Positions 39,348 to 46,684 of a stretch of 64,000 bases of DNA are shown piece by piece (the stretch's first letter is position 1; the number at the start of each line of letters is the position of its first letter). The DNA lies in NCBI GenBank assembly GCA_963708075.1, contig OY970194.1:1984001-2048000 (forward strand), in the 5' to 3' direction. Source of the stretch: Sedimentisphaerales bacterium (GTDB taxonomy: Bacteria; Planctomycetota; Phycisphaerae; Sedimentisphaerales; Anaerobacaceae). The position numbers and the translations under genes are program-made. The notes under the pieces were generated by a model. That model was not told where the DNA came from and made no database searches. It worked only from the letters and a program-made list of their open reading frames with translations.

Positions 39348-40307
39348 TCACACAAACTTCCGCAACTTCAAACCGGCCACACCCATACCGAGCATACCCA
39401 GCAGAACGGCGGCCGGAAGCGGCACAACTGCACCACCGGCAAGTTCCAGGACCGTGACGCCCCACATACTCATGTTAGCATACGATCCTCCCCAGGTCAT
39501 GCTGTGCAGCCCCGAACTCCAGGTGTCACTAAGAATAACCGTGTTCGACCCATCATAGCCATAGCCAAACATGGAGTGACCCTCCACGTGGATCATCACC
39601 ACCCGGCCTGCATCGATTTCAGCCTTGTAATCGTCGAAAGTGAATCCGCTCGAGGCTACATTGTTCGTCACTTGCGTGTAGATGTCCGCCACTTCGTACC
39701 CGGCGTACTCGACATACTCCTTCACGCCGTACATGCCATCGTTGCCCTGAAGGCCGAAGTATTCAAGAATACCAGGGGTAACCGAAGTGCCGCTGTCGTA
39801 GGCGTAGAACGTGGTGGCTCCATTCACATTGCCTATGCTGTCCTGACTGGTCCCCATGAAGTCGGCCAGACAGTTATAATTGTGAGTTGGAGTAAGGTCG
39901 TCGCCGGAGGCTCCGTAGCCGAAGCCGATACCACCACCGGTGTTATATGCATAAGGATGGCCGGGACCGGCACTGTAGAAATCATACTGGTGCCCGGTAC
40001 TGGCAATCGCTTGATTGACGAGGGCACCCGAATTGCCAAAGGTGCTTGCCTCCGCGACGCCTCCCGGGACAAGGTTGGAATACCCAAGTCCCTCATAGCC
40101 GTTGCGGTCGTAGAACCCCATCATCATCCCGGCAGAGGTTGCCGAGCACCCATACCACCAGTTGTAGCCCGGATTAGGTTCGGGACCGGCCAGAGTGCCG
40201 CCCTGGACGTAATAGGACAGTTCTTCCATGTCCGCCCGCGCCGCTGCAGCGATCAGGCACAAAACCGCCAAACAGAGAACCCGCAACCAGTGTCTTTTCA
40301 TCGCCAT
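39348..40307 (-). CDS. Variant PEP-CTERM surface protein 5 with papain-like cysteine peptidase (C39/C10-like) domain
   Basis: WWYGCSATSAGMMMGFYD (Cys) and GHSMFGYGY..DTW (His/Asp); tail VPLPAAVLLGMLGMGVAGLKLRKFV. Confidence 0.8.
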   Translation of the reverse strand: MAMKRHWLRVLCLAVLCLIAAAARADMEELSYYVQGGTLAGPEPNPGYNWWYGCSATSAGMMMGFYDRNGYEGLGYSNLVPGGVAEASTFGNSGALVNQAIASTGHQYDFYSAGPGHPYAYNTGGGIGFGYGASGDDLTPTHNYNCLADFMGTSQDSIGNVNGATTFYAYDSGTSVTPGILEYFGLQGNDGMYGVKEYVEYAGYEVADIYTQVTNNVASSGFTFDDYKAEIDAGRVVMIHVEGHSMFGYGYDGSNTVILSDTWSSGLHSMTWGGSYANMSMWGVTVLELAGGAVVPLPAAVLLGMLGMGVAGLKLRKFV

Positions 40308-40452
40308 TCCATCCTTTCTCCCAATCTGATCTTCCATAAGCACCCATCCATCAGGCGATCAGGTGGCCGCTGCCGTCACAGCGCCATCGACCGACACCCC
40401 AAACACCCGGGGCCTTTCCAACTACTCCTTCTGCAGCGACCCGATCTGCCTC

Positions 40453-41061
40453 TCACACAAACTTCCGCAACTTCATACCCGCGACACCCAAACCGAGCAT
40501 GCCCAGCAGCACCGCTGCAGGCAGGGGCACGACCGCGGAAATGCTGAACGCATCCGAAACGCTCGGCGCAGGGGTCAAACCGGTGTTCAGACGAACATCG
40601 AAGCCGATCATCGTCAGGTATCCCGAGCTCGTTAGGTCGAACTCCAGCCACCTGAATTCACCGGGCACCAGTGTCTGCCAGCCAGATTCCCCGGCACTCG
40701 TGACCAGCCGAACGTCCCATGCGCTGTTGTCGTCATTGCCCAGCCAGGCACCGAAGCTGTCAGTGGTCCCGGACCCGAAAGTCCCTGTCGCTCCAATTCG
40801 CATCCAGCTCGAATTGCCGCTGAGACTGCCCACAAAACCGACATCGCCCAGCATGCCCGCCGGGTATGCGACGGCCGGCAAATAGGGATTCTGGTACTCC
40901 CACCCGGTGCCATTGAAGACGCCATTCAATAGCCCCGAACTGCCGGTGGCAGTGATCTGAAGAAAATCCAGGGCCGTTGAATAGTCGAGGGTATACAGAC
41001 CGGCAGAGGCCTGCCCGGCAAGCAGACAGACCACCACAACCGATAGTAGAATACGTTTCAT
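40453..41061 (-). CDS. Variant PEP-CTERM surface protein 4
   Basis: Signal peptide; tail VPLPAAVLLGMLGLGVAGMKLRKFV; GGAGG SD. Confidence 0.9.
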   Translation of the reverse strand: MKRILLSVVVVCLLAGQASAGLYTLDYSTALDFLQITATGSSGLLNGVFNGTGWEYQNPYLPAVAYPAGMLGDVGFVGSLSGNSSWMRIGATGTFGSGTTDSFGAWLGNDDNSAWDVRLVTSAGESGWQTLVPGEFRWLEFDLTSSGYLTMIGFDVRLNTGLTPAPSVSDAFSISAVVPLPAAVLLGMLGLGVAGMKLRKFV

Positions 41062-41117
41062 TTCTATTTTTCCTCCGTTTCCATTGTCTCAGACCAACCT
41101 ATCCGATCACGAAACCG

Positions 41118-41936
41118 TTACACGTACTTGCGCAACTTCAGGCCCGCCACGCCGAAACCCAACATCCCCAGCAGAACCGCTGCCGGCACAGGCACGACGT
41201 GAAAGCTATCCGGCCCGCTGCCCAACCCGAATCCGACGTTTCCCAAAGAATAGCCATCCAGAGAGAGGCCGGTAATACCGAACTCGAAGGTGGCCATATC
41301 CCGGACAAGGAGCAGATTGTTCAGGGAACTAGTGGCGGCATCGCCGTGGTAGATCGAGTAGTTGACCCCGTCCACAAGGTTACCGTTGAACTGATTGGCT
41401 GAATCCGTGATCAGATACGTGGTCGTCCCGGGAATGGGCGTATTGTTCCCAATAGTCCCGATACCGAAATTCAGGTACGGAAAGCTCCCGGGGTTTCCAT
41501 CTATGAACGCCCATGACTCCGCCCGGCCCTGCACATTCCCTGGCTCACCGTACACCCGGATGTCAGTGAATGACTGCAGGACATCTGTAGCCGTCTTACG
41601 AGCGAGGTAGACACTCCCCGTAGCATCCTGATACGTCAACGTGGGACGAGTGCCGTCGCTGTTGACGATGTCGAAGTAGAAGCTGCTCAAGACATCATCC
41701 TTACTGTCGCTTGGCACCGGCGAGACGTTGTAAAGACTCACCGTCAGCGTGCTGCCGCTTATCGTAAGGTCGGCCTGGAATTTGACGTCGGTTCCTGATA
41801 GGGACGTACCTTCCCACTCATACAGGGCAGCCTGGGCCGACTGCGCAAGCAGCAAGCAAGCCAAGCACCCAACTAGCAATGTCACAGATCCTTTATTTGT
41901 ACGCGTACTTCTCTTTGATACAGTCATTCTCTGCAC
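41118..41936 (-). CDS. Variant PEP-CTERM surface protein 3
   Basis: Signal ..LLLAQSAQA; Ser/Thr/Gly/Asn-rich beta domain; tail VPVPAAVLLGMLGFGVAGLKLRKYV; start GTG 41936 or ATG 41927. Confidence 0.88.
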   Translation of the reverse strand: MQRMTVSKRSTRTNKGSVTLLVGCLACLLLAQSAQAALYEWEGTSLSGTDVKFQADLTISGSTLTVSLYNVSPVPSDSKDDVLSSFYFDIVNSDGTRPTLTYQDATGSVYLARKTATDVLQSFTDIRVYGEPGNVQGRAESWAFIDGNPGSFPYLNFGIGTIGNNTPIPGTTTYLITDSANQFNGNLVDGVNYSIYHGDAATSSLNNLLLVRDMATFEFGITGLSLDGYSLGNVGFGLGSGPDSFHVVPVPAAVLLGMLGFGVAGLKLRKYV

Positions 41937-42182
41937 CCAATCTCACCGGCCCGTGTCCTAAGCGTCTGGCTCGTTTCCCGACAATCGCATGCACACTCTC
42001 ACGCAATCACCGATTCTCCGGCGGTCCAGACCTGAACCTCGGGTTGCCTTCTATTCAAACGATGGTCTTTCCTTTCAACATCACCTTGCATCCCTTCACT
42101 ACCACACACCAACTGCACCCACCGGCAGATGCTTTTTCACCCGACAATCGCCTGCCTGCCGATCAAGCCCCTTACGAGGCTT

Positions 42183-43052
42183 TCACACAAACCTCCGCAA
42201 CTTCAACCCCGCCGCCCCCAAGCCGAGCATACCCAACAGAACGGCCGCCGGAACAGGGACTATGGCCGCGTCGTGGCTGAACCAGTAGATGCCCGGCTGC
42301 AACGTCAGGGGAGTAGCCAGAGTGTACTTCAGAAAGAAAATGTCATCAGTCACGCTGCCCATGTCGGTGCCGAACACGCGGTCCACGCCGGTGTCGCCCC
42401 AGGTGAAGACGCCCGCGACGTTGTCGGATGAGAAGACGTCGCCGGTGAACGAACCCGTATTGACGGGCAGCAGATCTCCGGCCACATTGGACCAGATATT
42501 CATGCGGTATTGAATCATGGGATCGTCCCGGTTGAAACCGGAGTTCTCGTCAAAGTAGCCAATGATCTGATCGAAGGTGGTCGCCGTCTCAATTTTGAAG
42601 TAGCCGGCATAGATCCAGTCGAAGTTGTTGGACATCGAATAGCCGCGATAGAGTCCCGGCGTATCTCCACTTGCCAAACCCTGGGCGGTAGCGTTGTAGT
42701 AGTTCCCGTACGTCCCATCCTCGATACCATTGTTGTTGTAAACAATGCTGGCCCCACTCTTGAGGGTCAAAGCAAAACCGGCGTTTTGGGTGAACCAGTC
42801 ATCCTTGTGCCATGTGTCTAAGGTGTAAGAGCCCCACCCCGGATCATCCGTTATATAGCGGAACGTCCCACCGGACGCATTGTCTCCGTTGGGGATATTC
42901 CCCGTTGGGAATTGGCCGCCAGTAATAATGTAGTAGTAGCCGTGGCTATCGATCTCGTAATCAGCATGCCCATTGAAGAGCTCCGCGCTCGCCAGAGGGC
43001 TGCACGCAGCCACAAGCAATATGGCCAGCAACCGTATCTTCACGTTCATCAT
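42183..43052 (-). CDS. Variant PEP-CTERM surface protein 2
   Basis: GGAGG SD; signal MMNVKIRLLAILLVAA; tail VPVPAAVLLGMLGLGAAGLKLRRFV. Confidence 0.9.
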   Translation of the reverse strand: MMNVKIRLLAILLVAACSPLASAELFNGHADYEIDSHGYYYIITGGQFPTGNIPNGDNASGGTFRYITDDPGWGSYTLDTWHKDDWFTQNAGFALTLKSGASIVYNNNGIEDGTYGNYYNATAQGLASGDTPGLYRGYSMSNNFDWIYAGYFKIETATTFDQIIGYFDENSGFNRDDPMIQYRMNIWSNVAGDLLPVNTGSFTGDVFSSDNVAGVFTWGDTGVDRVFGTDMGSVTDDIFFLKYTLATPLTLQPGIYWFSHDAAIVPVPAAVLLGMLGLGAAGLKLRRFV

Positions 43053-43117
43053 CCTAAAACCTCCCGCTCGCTCCTCCACGCCCAATAGCACGTGTGAGCA
43101 AGACAGCATTTCTCAAA

Positions 43118-43783
43118 TCACACATGCTTACGCAACTTCACACCGGCGACGCCGAGGCCGAGCATGCCTAGCAGAACAGCAGCGGGGACAGGAACTACGG
43201 CAAAGTCAGTGGTAGCGCTAATCGACAGTCCCGTTCCATTCTCTGTCCAGGTTTCGATATACTGCCAGTTGCCTATATCTTCGAGCCAGAATTGCCCGAC
43301 CCCTGTGACCAGCATGACGAAGCCGCTCTCCTCGGAGAAATCGGTGTCTTCTGCAGCAAGAACACTGTAGGAGGAATTCGGACCGAGATACGTATATACG
43401 CCGGTATAGTGATACGTCATCGCAGGGTCAAGATTGACGCCGCTGCCGGAATAGACAAATACATCTGGGTCATACCAATGCGCCCCATCCCAAACCGTCG
43501 GATTGATGCTGAACTGAGTCATGCTAGGGGAGCCCACTTGGTACAACGGGTCCCCGGCAATGCTGTAATGTGGGATCGTGGGACCCAGCACCAAATTGCC
43601 GTCCACATCGTAGTAGTAACCACCAGCAGGCTGCTCCGGTGTCGGTCCTGTGATCATCACGACATCTCCCGTGGTATCACTCCAATCGGTTCCAAGGATG
43701 GGCGTGGTCTGCCAGCTTAGATCTGCGACGGCGGGCGCTGCCACAAAGGCACACAGTACTGCAACAAGAGTCACGCTTCTCAT
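43118..43783 (-). CDS. Variant PEP-CTERM surface protein 1 (first cargo gene)
   Basis: GGAGG SD at 43793-43797; signal peptide; tail VPVPAAVLLGMLGLGVAGVKLRKHV. Confidence 0.9.
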   Translation of the reverse strand: MRSVTLVAVLCAFVAAPAVADLSWQTTPILGTDWSDTTGDVVMITGPTPEQPAGGYYYDVDGNLVLGPTIPHYSIAGDPLYQVGSPSMTQFSINPTVWDGAHWYDPDVFVYSGSGVNLDPAMTYHYTGVYTYLGPNSSYSVLAAEDTDFSEESGFVMLVTGVGQFWLEDIGNWQYIETWTENGTGLSISATTDFAVVPVPAAVLLGMLGLGVAGVKLRKHV

Positions 43784-43792
43784 CGTCTTTAG

Positions 43793-43925
43793 CCTCCACT
43801 TGGCTTGTTCACATCATGAGTCTTGGATGGCTCGCACTCTTGCATCGCAGTGACAGTAGAGAAAACCTCTGCATCGTCACAGGGTGCGAGCACACGGAGA
43901 GCTACTCATGTGCCAAGTCGGGAGG
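43793..43925 (-). promoter_or_regulatory. Predicted SD-sequestering mRNA stem-loop linking the leader ORF 3' end to the cargo gene 1 RBS
   Basis: Nested complementary blocks: 43793-97/43921-25, 43798-804/43912-18, 43815-21/43904-10, 43830-40/43881-91, 43850-54/43876-80. Confidence 0.7.
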
Positions 43926-44510
43926 TCCACGGGAGGCGAGAACGGCAGGCGTGAATTGCGATTGCCGCCAGAGGGCAACGATGGTCTCCTGGCGGTATGA
44001 TGACGTGATGTCCCCTGCCCTGCACTCCGGCTGAACGAAGCAGACCGGCGCATGGCAGAGGCAATCGGGCGAAATGGCGTGGCTGTGACCGATCTGGACC
44101 GGCCCGCCGTCGTGGTACCACTGTGGGACATGACTGAACGACAATCTCTTGACCAGGGGAACGGACCGGCACATCCCCAGGCCCAGCAAGGCATACAGGC
44201 ACAAGCCGAAGCTGTTCTGCCCATCCGACTGGATCTGCGCGGGGGGCAGTTCACCGGCCCGTCCCATTCCGCCATGCAGATGGGGCAGAGACTCGACAGG
44301 AAGCGAACCGAGACTCGCGATGCTCAGGCAATCCAGCGGATTCGAGAAGTCCATGCCCCGGGGAGCAGTTGCGACAGAGGCGCGCACCGCCTGCTGACAC
44401 CCGGCATCCGGCGAAGACACCGGCCTCATGTCCGCGCGAACGGACGTACCGAGTGCAAGTACCCCGAGAATAATGTAGAGACTCTCACTCCGTTGGATCA
44501 CCACAGACAC
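43902..44510 (-). CDS. Putative leader/monitoring protein with C-terminal RGPP ribosome-arrest-type motif
   Basis: Signal peptide (..LGTSVRA/DM), hydrophobic helix FGLCLYALLGLGMC followed by basic residues, His/Cys-rich linker, ends LASRGPPDLAHE*; AAGGTGGAG SD, start GTG 44510/44504/44501. Confidence 0.7.
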   Translation of the reverse strand: MSVVIQRSESLYIILGVLALGTSVRADMRPVSSPDAGCQQAVRASVATAPRGMDFSNPLDCLSIASLGSLPVESLPHLHGGMGRAGELPPAQIQSDGQNSFGLCLYALLGLGMCRSVPLVKRLSFSHVPQWYHDGGPVQIGHSHAISPDCLCHAPVCFVQPECRAGDITSSYRQETIVALWRQSQFTPAVLASRGPPDLAHE

Positions 44511-44532
44511 TCCACCTTAAAATGCAGCCTCT

Positions 44533-44561
44533 AGTCCACCAGAAATCCCTCCCGGTGTCAA
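44533..44561 (-). promoter_or_regulatory. Candidate sigma70 promoter for the leader-CTERM operon
   Basis: Perfect -35 TTGACA, 17-nt spacer, weak -10 TGGACT, directly upstream of the leader SD. Confidence 0.45.
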
Positions 44562-44929
44562 GGAAAATCCATGAAAAAACCAGGGATTCGGCCCGCCATG
44601 CACCTTTCCGCCGACATCGCTCGTAACTCCTTTATTCACAAGACCTTGCGAGTGACAGTTGGCACCCCCTCCGCCGCAGATCTGGACCGCAAAACAAGAG
44701 AATCCGAAACAAATCCGGACCCAATCCAGATGACGGACACGCCCTTTACTCGCTTGTCCGTCACTACCTGAATTCAGCGTGTGCGTGCGTTTGCGTCTAT
44801 TCCAGCCTGCGAGCTTCGCGTCACACGGGTTCACAATCTCGCAGGACTCGTCTGATGCTTTGCACGTTCCCCCTTTCGTGCATGTTTCGAGTCTCGATAG
44901 GGGGATTTCGAATTCCCCATCATGCCAGG

Positions 44930-45931
44930 TCACGCACAATCGGGCACATCTGAAGAGGATTTCTTGCGGGCCCGGACGACGGATTCCGCCTGGGCACCCG
45001 GCTGTCCCTTGCAGGACTTGGAATCGGGCATGAAGATCCTATCCATCAGCGAAAGCTCGCCGAACAGCAGCATGACGGCGATGGGCATCATGACATACCC
45101 GGCGAAGTCGTGGAAGAACTTCTCGCCTACTTCACTACTGACATGCAGCATGAGGACCGCCGTCACGAAGATCCGCACGATATTGCAGACCACCGCCACC
45201 GGAATGCTCGACGCCAACAGGACAGCTTTCTGCCACCGCGGTCGCTTGACCATATACGCAATGAACGCCGCGACGATAATGAACGCCATCAGCATACGAA
45301 GTCCGCTGCAAGCCTCCGCCACCGCCATTGGCGTACTCTCCCCCAGCATGACAACATTCCCCTGCTGCCCGACCTCAATCCCCACCGCCTCTAAAAGCAC
45401 GACAGACCCCGTCGTCGCCATCCTCTGCAGCGGTCCGGCAATCAGACGATGAGCGACCCCAGGAAGCGGCAACATGAGGAATAGAAACAGCAGAATCCAA
45501 AGGACACGTCGAAACACCTGACGTCCTGCCACCAGGAGAACCAGTCCTGCCGCCGTCAGAACAAGCGAATACCGCTCGGCCGCGGAACGCATGAAAAGGA
45601 ACCCGTAAGTCCGGACCAGTTGCGCCAATACAACCAAGATGGTCCCCCCCCACCAGCACGGCATCAGCGAGCACTGCCGCAGCCCCTTCCATTCACGCCA
45701 CATGAGAAACACGGCAACCAGCGGAACGAGTTGGCCTGCGGAGTAGTCGTCGCTTTTCTGCCACAAACTGAAAAGACCTGCTGCGACCGGCCAATACGAC
45801 CATGCCGTGATTATCGCCAATACCAGCACGAGCGAGAGGAGCCTCGAGGTGCTACCTTGTGAACAAGCTGCACAGATCGCTTGCAGGGTACCTCGCTGGC
45901 GGGTGTGACGGTCGGTCATATTCGGCCTCAT
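44930..45931 (-). CDS. xrt: Exosortase (EpsH family transpeptidase)
   Basis: Multi-TM protein with catalytic triad motifs VAEACSGLR (Cys), NIVRI (Arg), FFHDFAG (His). Confidence 0.93.
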   Translation of the reverse strand: MRPNMTDRHTRQRGTLQAICAACSQGSTSRLLSLVLVLAIITAWSYWPVAAGLFSLWQKSDDYSAGQLVPLVAVFLMWREWKGLRQCSLMPCWWGGTILVVLAQLVRTYGFLFMRSAAERYSLVLTAAGLVLLVAGRQVFRRVLWILLFLFLMLPLPGVAHRLIAGPLQRMATTGSVVLLEAVGIEVGQQGNVVMLGESTPMAVAEACSGLRMLMAFIIVAAFIAYMVKRPRWQKAVLLASSIPVAVVCNIVRIFVTAVLMLHVSSEVGEKFFHDFAGYVMMPIAVMLLFGELSLMDRIFMPDSKSCKGQPGAQAESVVRARKKSSSDVPDCA

Positions 45932-45932
45932 A

Positions 45933-46684
45933 TCACTTCTTTTCAGGTGACTCGCGGAGTGCCCCTGAGCCCTGGTCCTGAATCATGTTGTCGAATAGAC
46001 TGGCTATGGGTACGAAAGAATCGATGGCAAAGTCCCGGAGGATTTCTTCCGCTATATCCTCCCCGGCGGTCCCAACCGGGGTAATGATCTGTATCTCCGC
46101 CGCATAACGCACCGCCGAATGACGACGCCAGACTTTCCACTGCACCGCCGGAATATCGCTGTAGTGGTGCCCATCAACGATGAGGTAGAGTAGAGTCGCT
46201 ATTCTCTCCATACCCAACCTGTTGCGGGCGAACTCAAAGAGGGTGCATGGCCGCATGGTCCCATCGGCTGCAGGCAGCTCTATCAACCGATGGCTGGCGA
46301 GGAGCCACCCGGCTCCTGAGTAGCAGTTCTCGGGGTTGTGGCGCAGCAGTTCACCAGCGTTGACGCCGCATGTGACATATAATGTGATCGCTTCCTGGCC
46401 GTTACGGCGGGAGTACCGACGGCTGACGTGAGAGTCGGAATCGGTCCGCTGCACTATGGCTTCATCCAGCGGAACGTCCTCGCCCACCCAACCGCCAATC
46501 GCCATCGGAAACCGGCCCAGCGCATCGGCGCAATTGGGGCCCCCGTCGCGGAATCAGCAAAATGTGCAGCCAGCGTGCGGTGCGCGAGAGCAAAAGCCAG
46601 CATCACCAGACTAGCTACAATCGCCGCAAGGATCACCGGCCGGAAGTCCGGCTTGTTGCTTTCTGTGGTTCGTTTCGCCTTCAT
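45933..46684 (-). CDS. epsI: Exosortase-associated EpsI family protein, frameshifted near 46526-46544
   Basis: N-terminal TM in 46454-46684; FP.AIGGWVGED, SRRY and HNPENCYSGAGW EpsI motif in 45933-46505; adding one base gives PIAPDALGRFPMAIG. Confidence 0.8.

Follow-up and report, generated by a model that had tools for sequence, protein, structure and literature searches.

SecM of Escherichia coli, MifM of Bacillus subtilis and VemP are monitoring substrates that share one arrangement (SecM-secA, MifM-yidC2 and VemP-secDF2). In SecM-secA, a signal-bearing chain carries an arrest site at its C-terminus, a few codons before the stop codon, and the downstream Shine-Dalgarno (SD) sequence is held in a stem that is disrupted by the stalled ribosome (PMC7897499, PMC10951233). 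ApdA, ApdP and ApcA, the RAP(P/G) peptides upstream of secDF and yidC, are small secreted or membrane proteins with an R-A/G-P-P core near the C-terminus. CruR (DUF2946), the product of a copper-responsive RAPP upstream open reading frame (ORF) in Bordetella pertussis, is exported, has its RAPP motif three residues before the stop codon, and acts through Rho-dependent termination on a TonB-dependent transporter (PMC9426467). RAPP and RGPP have been characterized by the Chiba laboratory as robust arrest cores that are refractory to EF-P, depleted from proteomes and enriched at the C-termini of small secretory or membrane proteins (Fujiwara et al., EMBO J 2025, PMC12992588). The current study concerns a stretch of 64,000 nucleotides (nt; hereafter the window) from a Sedimentisphaerales bacterium of the Planctomycetota (contig OY970194.1, positions 1,984,001 to 2,048,000), in which a 202-codon gene, termed the leader, ends in R-G-P-P and is followed by a gene for a PEP-CTERM-type protein, termed cargo gene 1. 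The leader is probably a membrane-targeted arrest peptide of the RGPP type that controls translation of the PEP-CTERM gene that follows; unlike in SecM, MifM and VemP, the codons of its arrest motif are themselves the anti-SD sequence. The features involved are as follows, in positions of the window.

43902-44510, minus strand: leader gene, 202 codons (from the ORF list)
43932-43937, minus strand: second anti-SD sequence (anti-SD 2), GCCUCC within the Ala-Ser codons, with which the SD can pair instead (196-nt ensemble)
43920-43931, minus strand: arrest-motif codons CGU GGA CCU CCC, R-G-P-P (from the sequence)
43925-43923, 43922-43920 and 43904-43902, minus strand: CCU, CCC and the stop codon UAG (read from the sequence)
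43921-43925, minus strand: first anti-SD sequence (anti-SD 1), CCUCC on the Pro-Pro codons (from sequence and folding)
43904-43918, minus strand: 5' strand of the extended helix, ACUUGGC and CAUGAGU within the D-L-A-H-E and stop codons (from sequence and folding)
43830-43891, minus strand: inner hairpin, located within the long-range helix (seen in the minimum free energy and centroid structures)
43793-43821, minus strand: 3' strand of the extended helix, ACUCAUG ... GCCAAGU and then the SD, GGAGG (43797-43793; from sequence and folding)
43118-43783, minus strand: cargo gene 1, 221 amino acids (aa), with a signal peptide and a VPVPAAVLLGMLGLGVAGVKLRK C-terminus (PEP-CTERM type; 18.2 bits with the Pfam PEP-CTERM model, below its cut-off of 20.7)

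Judged by its sequence, the leader has the features of a RAPP/RGPP arrest peptide, with R-[A/G]-P-P near the C-terminus of a small secretory or membrane protein. It matches no Pfam or NCBIfam family; 227 homologues were found at E <= 0.01 among 682 candidates, nearly all of them about 198 aa long. A signal-like hydrophobic helix at the N-terminus is followed by a variable region, then by a second hydrophobic segment (LCLYALLGLGMC) and a conserved WYHDGGPxQIGHS/Cys-rich stretch, and the protein closes with SRGPP-DLAHE-stop. As read from the sequence, the N-terminal n-h-c region ends in VRA-D and the second hydrophobic stretch is followed by R/K. In 36 aligned homologues (of 120 listed, and picked irrespective of the motif), R192, P194 and P195 are invariant, and the consensus C-terminus is QFTPAVLASR[G/A]PP plus approximately three residues. 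RxPP is found in the last 30 residues of 118 of the 120 listed homologues (89 RGPP, 28 RAPP and 1 RSPP), the two exceptions having QAPP and CGPP at the motif position. Exactly three residues follow the motif in 64 of these 118, while five follow RGPP in the window leader. Homologues that are only 26-35% identical to the window leader, with an otherwise unrelated C-terminal sequence, keep the [PS]R[GA]PP end. Distances to the motif Arg are also conserved: of 134 copies, 95 have the W of WYHxGGP 64 residues away, and of 111 copies, 87 have the LCLxA of the second hydrophobic segment at 92 residues. Cys residues frequently occupy positions -43, -38/-37 and -31, and His residues positions -62 and -53, at fixed spacing; in CruR, a Cys motif lies at a fixed 45 residues upstream (PMC9426467).

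The leader ends in the codons CGU GGA CCU CCC GAC UUG GCA CAU GAG UAG, and the AUG of cargo gene 1 (a 221-aa ORF) lies at 43783-43781, with GGAGG 9 nt 5' of it. An earlier note on this DNA had claimed that the leader end is complementary in three blocks to the region containing this SD, and each block was found where it had been placed: CCUCC (43925-43921) pairs with GGAGG (43797-43793), ACUUGGC (43918-43912) with GCCAAGU (43804-43798) and CAUGAGU (43910-43904) with ACUCAUG (43821-43815), for a total of 19 Watson-Crick pairs. The enclosed inner hairpin is likewise present in the predicted structures, its arms being GCUCGCAC (43891-43884) with GUGCGAGC (43837-43830) and GUGAC (43880-43876) with GUCAC (43854-43850). 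Anti-SD 1 together with the preceding A equals the ACCUCC of the organism's own 16S 3' end (16S tail GGATCACCTCCTTTCT), and GGA-CCU-CC(U) thereby spells ACCUCC(U), identical with the 16S 3' tail ...GGAUCACCUCCUUUCU. The window also has CUCUCC straight after the leader stop codon (43900-43895).

RNAfold placed the long-range helix in both the minimum free energy (MFE) and centroid structures of a 151-nt RNA (-52.8 kcal/mol, z -2.28; 4 of 200 shuffled sequences fold as stably) and again in a 191-nt RNA (-66.2 kcal/mol, z -2.15; 5 of 200), although in the MFE structure of the latter it is the upstream GCCUCC that pairs with the SD. In the predicted ensemble of a 196-nt RNA, the five SD bases are 0.99-1.0 paired, as the proposed sequestration demands, with 0.54-0.55 of the SD pairing going to 43932-43936. 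The two anti-SDs are therefore near-equal alternatives; the GCCUCC noted earlier on the Ala-Ser codons is present (43937-43932) and is not a spare. The window's cognate leader-end/SD duplex (-26.6 kcal/mol) is the best of 64 partners, and only 2.2% of 460 windows from the same locus pair as well as the window SD does. Synonymous recoding of the leader end lowers predicted SD pairing in the window from 0.998 to 0.49, with 6 of 200 recodings reaching the observed value. The 43000-45000 region gave no match at E <= 1 to the covariance models of Rfam 15.

By analogy with ApdA, ApdP and CruR, the predicted stall would place CCU (43925-43923) and CCC in the P and A sites, respectively, and a toeprint of CruR gives the same assignment (PMC12992588). 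A footprint of -12 to +15 from 43925 spans 43937-43910 and would cover both anti-SDs, which lie within -12 to +4 of the P-site codon, and the ACUUGGC block. When the footprint was masked during folding, as the earlier note had proposed as a check, the first three SD bases dropped from approximately 1.0 to 0.01-0.02 paired. These models thus place the SD in a paired state in free mRNA and its partner inside the footprint of the stalled ribosome, as in SecM/MifM-type systems. In leaders of the xMS class, the entire 5' strand of the outer helix lies at +1 to +14, and the common three-codon tail keeps this strand and the stop codon within the stalled ribosome.

The same arrangement was sought across the leader family. 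Loci comprised 72 from species-representative genomes (all metagenome-assembled genomes of Planctomycetota), the organism's own two copies, relatives, and 80 metagenome loci (the best 80 of 372 matching stretches), giving 173 leader copies, of which 142 were unique. The first Pro codon is CCT in 120 of the 142 unique copies, compared to 18% of Pro codons elsewhere in the same genes, and the motif Gly codon is GGA in 68 of 108, compared to a background of 14%. These two columns carry the largest bias (Kullback-Leibler, KL, 1.37 and 0.94) of the 23 conserved four-fold-degenerate columns. A 5-mer anti-SD at the position of anti-SD 2 occurs in only 20 of the 142 copies. Synonymous bias was also observed beyond the Pro-Pro codons, over the last nine codons or so (43932-43960 in the window; 142 copies), with Ser TCC in 59 of 81, Val GTA in 47 of 84, Leu CTC/CTT in 85 of 88, Pro(-6) CCA in 59 of 112 and Thr ACA in 54 of 94.

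Predicted SD-core pairing averages 0.75 over 121 loci. When these loci were folded with 120 nt of leader sequence on the 5' side and 30 nt of the cargo gene on the 3' side, the partners of the SD core peaked sharply between offsets 0 and +5 relative to the first Pro base. Of the SD state, 0.43 falls in the 28-nt zone from -12 to +15, compared to 0.14 in the other 108 upstream nt, and the zone share is at least 0.5 in 54 of the 121 loci (0.98 in the window). Replacing native leaders with chimeric ones reduced SD pairing from 0.58 to 0.41 (p about 1e-7), and changing the last codons synonymously according to the genes' own codon usage reduced zone pairing from 0.53 to 0.21, with 96 of the 121 loci above their own recodings (p about 1e-15). 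Among 64 loci, cognate leader-end/SD duplexes average -19.6 kcal/mol against -15.1 kcal/mol for non-cognate ones, and the tail alone, without the Pro codons, still gives -13.6 against -10.0 kcal/mol; neither difference was reached in any of 10000 permutations.

Compensatory change provides further evidence that the pairing is maintained. Leader tails vary and their partners before the SD track them (AACAUGUCA with UGACAUGUU, GACAUAUCA with UGAUAUG, UUAACGUCA with UGACGUU, and ACAUGUCUUG with CAAGACAUGU), and by eye, copies lacking CCU (e.g., L060, L062 and L054) bear an anti-SD in the tail instead (UUCUCCUCC with GGAGGAGAA, CUUUCCUAA with UUAGGAAAG). From 34 sequences of the xMS/xLS/xTS class, 27 were aligned; the other seven (both L028 copies, L047, L062, L106, L117 and L148) were set aside on visual inspection, as their spacers looked unalignable. 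RNAalifold returned an empty structure for the 27-sequence alignment, and the structure tested was one of four helices (32 pairs) drawn by hand from that alignment. In it, 87.8% of cells are paired, compared to 35-42% with the partners slid, and 14 of the 32 pairs changed on both sides (shuffle mean 3.9, reached in 0 of 500), including 5 of 9 in the tail/pre-SD helix. A covariance model built from the xMS alignment and run on 100 of 182 loci gave 41 matches with 39 distinct sequences, among which 21 of the 32 pairs, and 7 of the 9 in the tail/pre-SD helix, changed on both sides. The xMS spacer is highly structured, its two inner hairpins (alignment A2, columns 30-70 and 79-107) being 88-91% paired with compensatory changes of their own; they are the counterparts of the window's inner hairpin. 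Covariation thus supports evolutionary upkeep of the pairing in the xMS subclass, on 27-39 sequences, and it is in this subclass that the earlier note's proposal to look for covariation at homologous loci succeeded; the cognate-duplex and recoding controls point the same way at the level of the family. As a separate observation, the first xMS inner hairpin pairs UCUCCC with GGGAG, a second anti-SD-like/SD-like pair, and a three-state switch is conceivable.

Under the proposed gating mechanism, the off state would be free mRNA with the GGAGG of cargo gene 1 held in the long-range helix, its partner strand being the last codons of the leader (Ala-Ser GCCUCC or Pro-Pro CCUCC, then the tail codons). 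In the on state, a ribosome at R-G-P-P would stall with its P and A sites on CCU and CCC, and its mRNA channel would cover the partner strand, so that the helix could not form, the SD would be free and 30S subunits could start on the cargo gene while the stall lasts. The nascent chain would meanwhile be tethered by its signal peptide and its second hydrophobic segment, the latter fixed 92 residues from the Arg, with the conserved Cys/His cluster (31-62 residues away from the Arg) close to the tunnel exit; the release signal might, at a guess, be a pull on this chain or its folding. We infer ribosome stalling, increased cargo translation during the stall and a signal that ends it.

Several observations weigh against this mechanism or limit its generality. 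In the window, the third helix block (43910-43904) lies at or beyond the edge of the footprint, and masking the footprint leaves the last two G's of the SD in a weak local hairpin of 4 bp; with these limits, the earlier proposal that a stalled ribosome would cover the anti-SD strand and free the SD is supported by the predictions. The whole-fold z-scores of the window are modest (about -2.2). Across the family, masking the footprint lowers mean SD-core pairing in the predicted ensembles only from 0.75 to 0.48, and SD pairing with the zone is below 0.1 in 21 of the 121 loci, some perhaps due to wrong start-codon calls. The organism's second leader copy, L074, pairs weakly (0.16-0.23), and 25% of its recodings do as well. 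A sliding control within the same locus was also modest (mean z -1.1, best 5% in 20 of 64 loci), the SD window being the global optimum in 7 of the 64. Family p-values overstate independence because the loci are related. The SD/anti-SD helix carries no covariation because it is nearly invariant, and its outermost pair is unpaired in 19 of the 27 xMS sequences. The 39-sequence alignment (A3) was fitted to the structure, and the xMS covariance model gave no match to the window at E <= 0.01. Finally, the bias of the other codons among the last nine is unexplained by the SD helix and may reflect another RNA contact or a decoding constraint.

Plain translational coupling, in which the helix hides the SD, any ribosome finishing the leader opens it briefly, and RxPP serves a protein function or a short pause, would be an unlikely explanation. 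All of the RNA evidence is just as compatible with it, since the strand would also be covered by a ribosome terminating on the leader, and the leader is long, with conserved motifs far from the tunnel region, as in a working protein. What coupling leaves unexplained is the placement and invariance of R, P and P while the surrounding residues vary in distant members. In addition, the motif belongs to the RAPP/RGPP arrest cores that are depleted from proteomes and refractory to EF-P (PMC12992588), and it is fixed three codons before the stop in 64 of the 118 listed homologues, like that of CruR (PMC9426467). The earlier claim that the RNA geometry supports arrest independently of the protein motif therefore needs qualification, since that geometry does recur across the family with matching codon choice and compensation, but taken by itself fits coupling equally.

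Arrest acting at the level of the transcript, as in CruR, is less likely again. Here, the stalled ribosome would block Rho-dependent termination or protect the mRNA, and the SD pairing would be secondary. The precedents are favorable: the RAPP protein CruR works in this way (PMC9426467), and no SD-sequestering hairpin is predicted for ApcA, ApdA or ApdP (PMC7897499). In the leader family, however, a conserved SD-sequestering helix is predicted, the SD itself is paired and its partner is the stall site. Moreover, the spacer of approximately 113 nt is highly structured in the xMS subclass, unlike an unstructured, C-rich Rho entry site, and no terminator-like site was found between leader and cargo. 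A CruR-like Rho mechanism acting in addition to SD unmasking is possible.

It is very improbable that the CCU/GGA preference reflects a need for a particular tRNA or slow codon at the stall site, with SD complementarity as a by-product. GGA (0.14) and CCU (0.18) are indeed minority codons in these genes, and the synonymous bias over the last nine or so codons is not wholly explained by the helix. Nevertheless, the tail/pre-SD helix cannot affect decoding at the stall because it lies 3' of the A site, yet it shows compensatory changes, and the cognate versus non-cognate test on the tail alone is significant. Copies without CCU have their anti-SD in the tail, and CruR encodes its RAPP with frequent codons (PMC9426467). 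Chance complementarity in a GC-rich spacer without function is hardly credible, for while the whole-fold z is only -2.2 and any SD pairs with any CCUCC, the pairing recurs family-wide, withstands the permutation, chimera and recoding controls, and covaries.

Arrest-dependent SD unmasking, the preferred reading, differs from the described systems in several respects. SecM, MifM and VemP regulate the localization machinery that pulls on them, while the gene that would be regulated here encodes a PEP-CTERM substrate of varied families; the downstream gene is not localization machinery, and the exosortase of this locus lies upstream rather than downstream of the leader. Because the putatively regulated gene is a substrate, the feedback logic of SecM and MifM is not directly transferable, a point that also weighs against the preferred reading. 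The comparison with secM-secA and mifM-yidC2 drawn in the earlier note accordingly holds for the predicted unmasking of the SD and not for the identity of the regulated gene. The leader has no sequence relation to SecM, MifM or VemP. Compared to ApdA, ApdP and ApcA, it shares the presumed P-site/A-site geometry and occurs in another phylum, Planctomycetota, upstream of a different class of gene, as a longer protein with a conserved C-terminal part of 90 residues. Where CruR employs Rho-dependent termination and a TonB-dependent transporter as target, the leader would employ SD pairing and a PEP-CTERM target. The leader falls by definition into the class of RAPP/RGPP small proteins (<300 aa, with a gene directly downstream; PMC12992588), its family being about 198-202 aa. 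Neither exosortase nor PEP-CTERM appears in the main text and the supplement parts of that paper that were covered, and the leader's peptide words were not found in those supplement parts; the list of RGPP upstream ORFs lies outside them and may include this family. The parts covered are silent on mRNA structure, the SD and codons; the text of PMC10987492 mentions neither exosortase nor PEP-CTERM, and a literature search found no publication linking exosortase with arrest peptides. What sets the leader apart is thus a substrate as the putative regulated gene, an exosortase neighbor in Planctomycetota, arrest codons that copy the 16S anti-SD, and a conserved SD-hiding helix.

It is possible, if doubtful, that the leader serves the exosortase sorting pathway as a monitoring substrate; it would then be the first such substrate outside Sec/YidC. 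The stalled nascent chain would then dock each leader-cargo cassette at the membrane, and the ribosome binding site of the cargo would stay open only until the Cys/His segment is engaged by the exosortase/EpsI machinery, a redox state or a metal. In this way, the cell might meter the synthesis of each PEP-CTERM protein to its sorting capacity, with arrest codons recruited as a copy of the 16S anti-SD such that one 7-nt element would be both stall site and switch.

To our knowledge, the regulation of exosortase systems is little understood. If the gating mechanism is true, the leader would represent a post-transcriptional control element for exosortase systems in hundreds of Planctomycetota loci, with a clear mRNA mechanism of the kind that is lacking for the founding RAPP peptides. 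The arrangement would be economical, since GGA-CCU-CC(U) encodes the Gly-Pro-Pro stall motif while copying the ribosome's anti-SD. CCUCC-biased Pro-Pro codons could also be used to sort RAPP/RGPP upstream ORFs into those acting by SD unmasking and those acting in other modes.

Additional analyses of the leader protein gave less distinct results. An AlphaFold2 model (36 sequences) has a mean pLDDT of 50.5, with low-confidence helices at 4-21, 98-108 and 168-183. The named clusters nearest to 43905-44510 in language-model features are LpqS (0.83), DUF2946/CruR (0.82) and SecM (0.82), all below 0.9 and to be taken as leads only, the likeness to SecM being a weak one at the level of features; two of these three are known arrest-peptide families. 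None of the 36 leader members matches Pfam DUF2946 at E <= 10, and the conserved Cys residues are not arranged as CXXC. The idea that the second hydrophobic segment mimics a PEP-CTERM anchor was rejected, as none of the 36 members matches Pfam PEP-CTERM at E <= 10 and leaders score no better than reversed sequences against a hidden Markov model (HMM) of 111 cargo C-termini (maximum 7.9 versus 3.1, both medians -2.8); the best matches to this model fall on the N-terminal signal region. In the organism's own genome, 64 small ORFs were found to end in R[AG]PP; nearly all look spurious, and only the two leader copies are convincing.

The gene order of the window, all on the minus strand, runs from a WecG-type glycosyltransferase through an EpsI-like gene, an exosortase and a 420-nt gap to the leader and five PEP-CTERM-type genes. 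Apart from the leader and cargo gene 1, the following features were recorded.

45933-46505, minus strand: EpsI-like exosortase partner, DUF3485 (profile matches)
44930-45931, minus strand: exosortase of the EpsH family, 420 nt upstream of the leader (Pfam Exosortase_EpsH 204 bits; TIGR02602 158 bits, above cut-off)
39348-43109, minus strand: four more tandem PEP-CTERM-type genes (ORFs and profile matches), namely
42183-43109, minus strand: PEP-CTERM-type gene
41118-41936, minus strand: PEP-CTERM-type gene, XDD4 family exosortase-dependent surface protein
40453-41061, minus strand: PEP-CTERM-type gene
39348-40343, minus strand: fifth PEP-CTERM-type gene, with a Peptidase_C39-like domain (26.2 bits, cut-off 24)

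No subtype model reaches its own cut-off with the exosortase at 44930-45931. The gap between exosortase and leader contains a terminator-like hairpin with a U-rich tail (44722-44700, minus strand), and because of this position the leader-cargo unit may have its own promoter; no sigma-70-like promoter was found in 42900-45100.

Across the family, 122 of the 142 unique leader copies are followed within 320 nt by an ORF of 120 aa or more on the same strand, at a median gap of 113.5 nt. All but one of the 112 complete downstream ORFs (111/112) end in VPxP-hydrophobic-basic, a PEP-CTERM-like anchor by our own pattern, while the short Pfam PEP-CTERM model matches 37 of the 112 at E <= 0.01, all at 16.4-19.9 bits and thus below the 20.7 cut-off. 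The protein bodies of the cargo are diverse, forming 33 clusters among 111 and including DUF4114, DUF642 and matrixin domains. Of the 63 copies for which 1500 nt or more of upstream sequence was available, 36 have EpsI and exosortase genes directly upstream on the same strand; the others are additional leader-cargo cassettes, in some cases two or three in succession. Such tandem cassettes suggest that each PEP-CTERM gene can have its own gate. Two leaders were seen at some loci (among L020, L024, L028 and L052), and three copies lie within approximately 5 kb in one relative (G014:C94:11654-16931).

The leader gene is present in 17 of the 61 genomes searched (60 relatives and the organism's own). 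It was not found in the 24 searched genomes of the order's other families, and all 16 relatives that carry it belong to one family. The organism's second copy, L074 (G000:C1:4607213-4607806), is 69% identical to the first, has no exosortase nearby, ends in the tail GMS and precedes a DUF642 PEP-CTERM protein.

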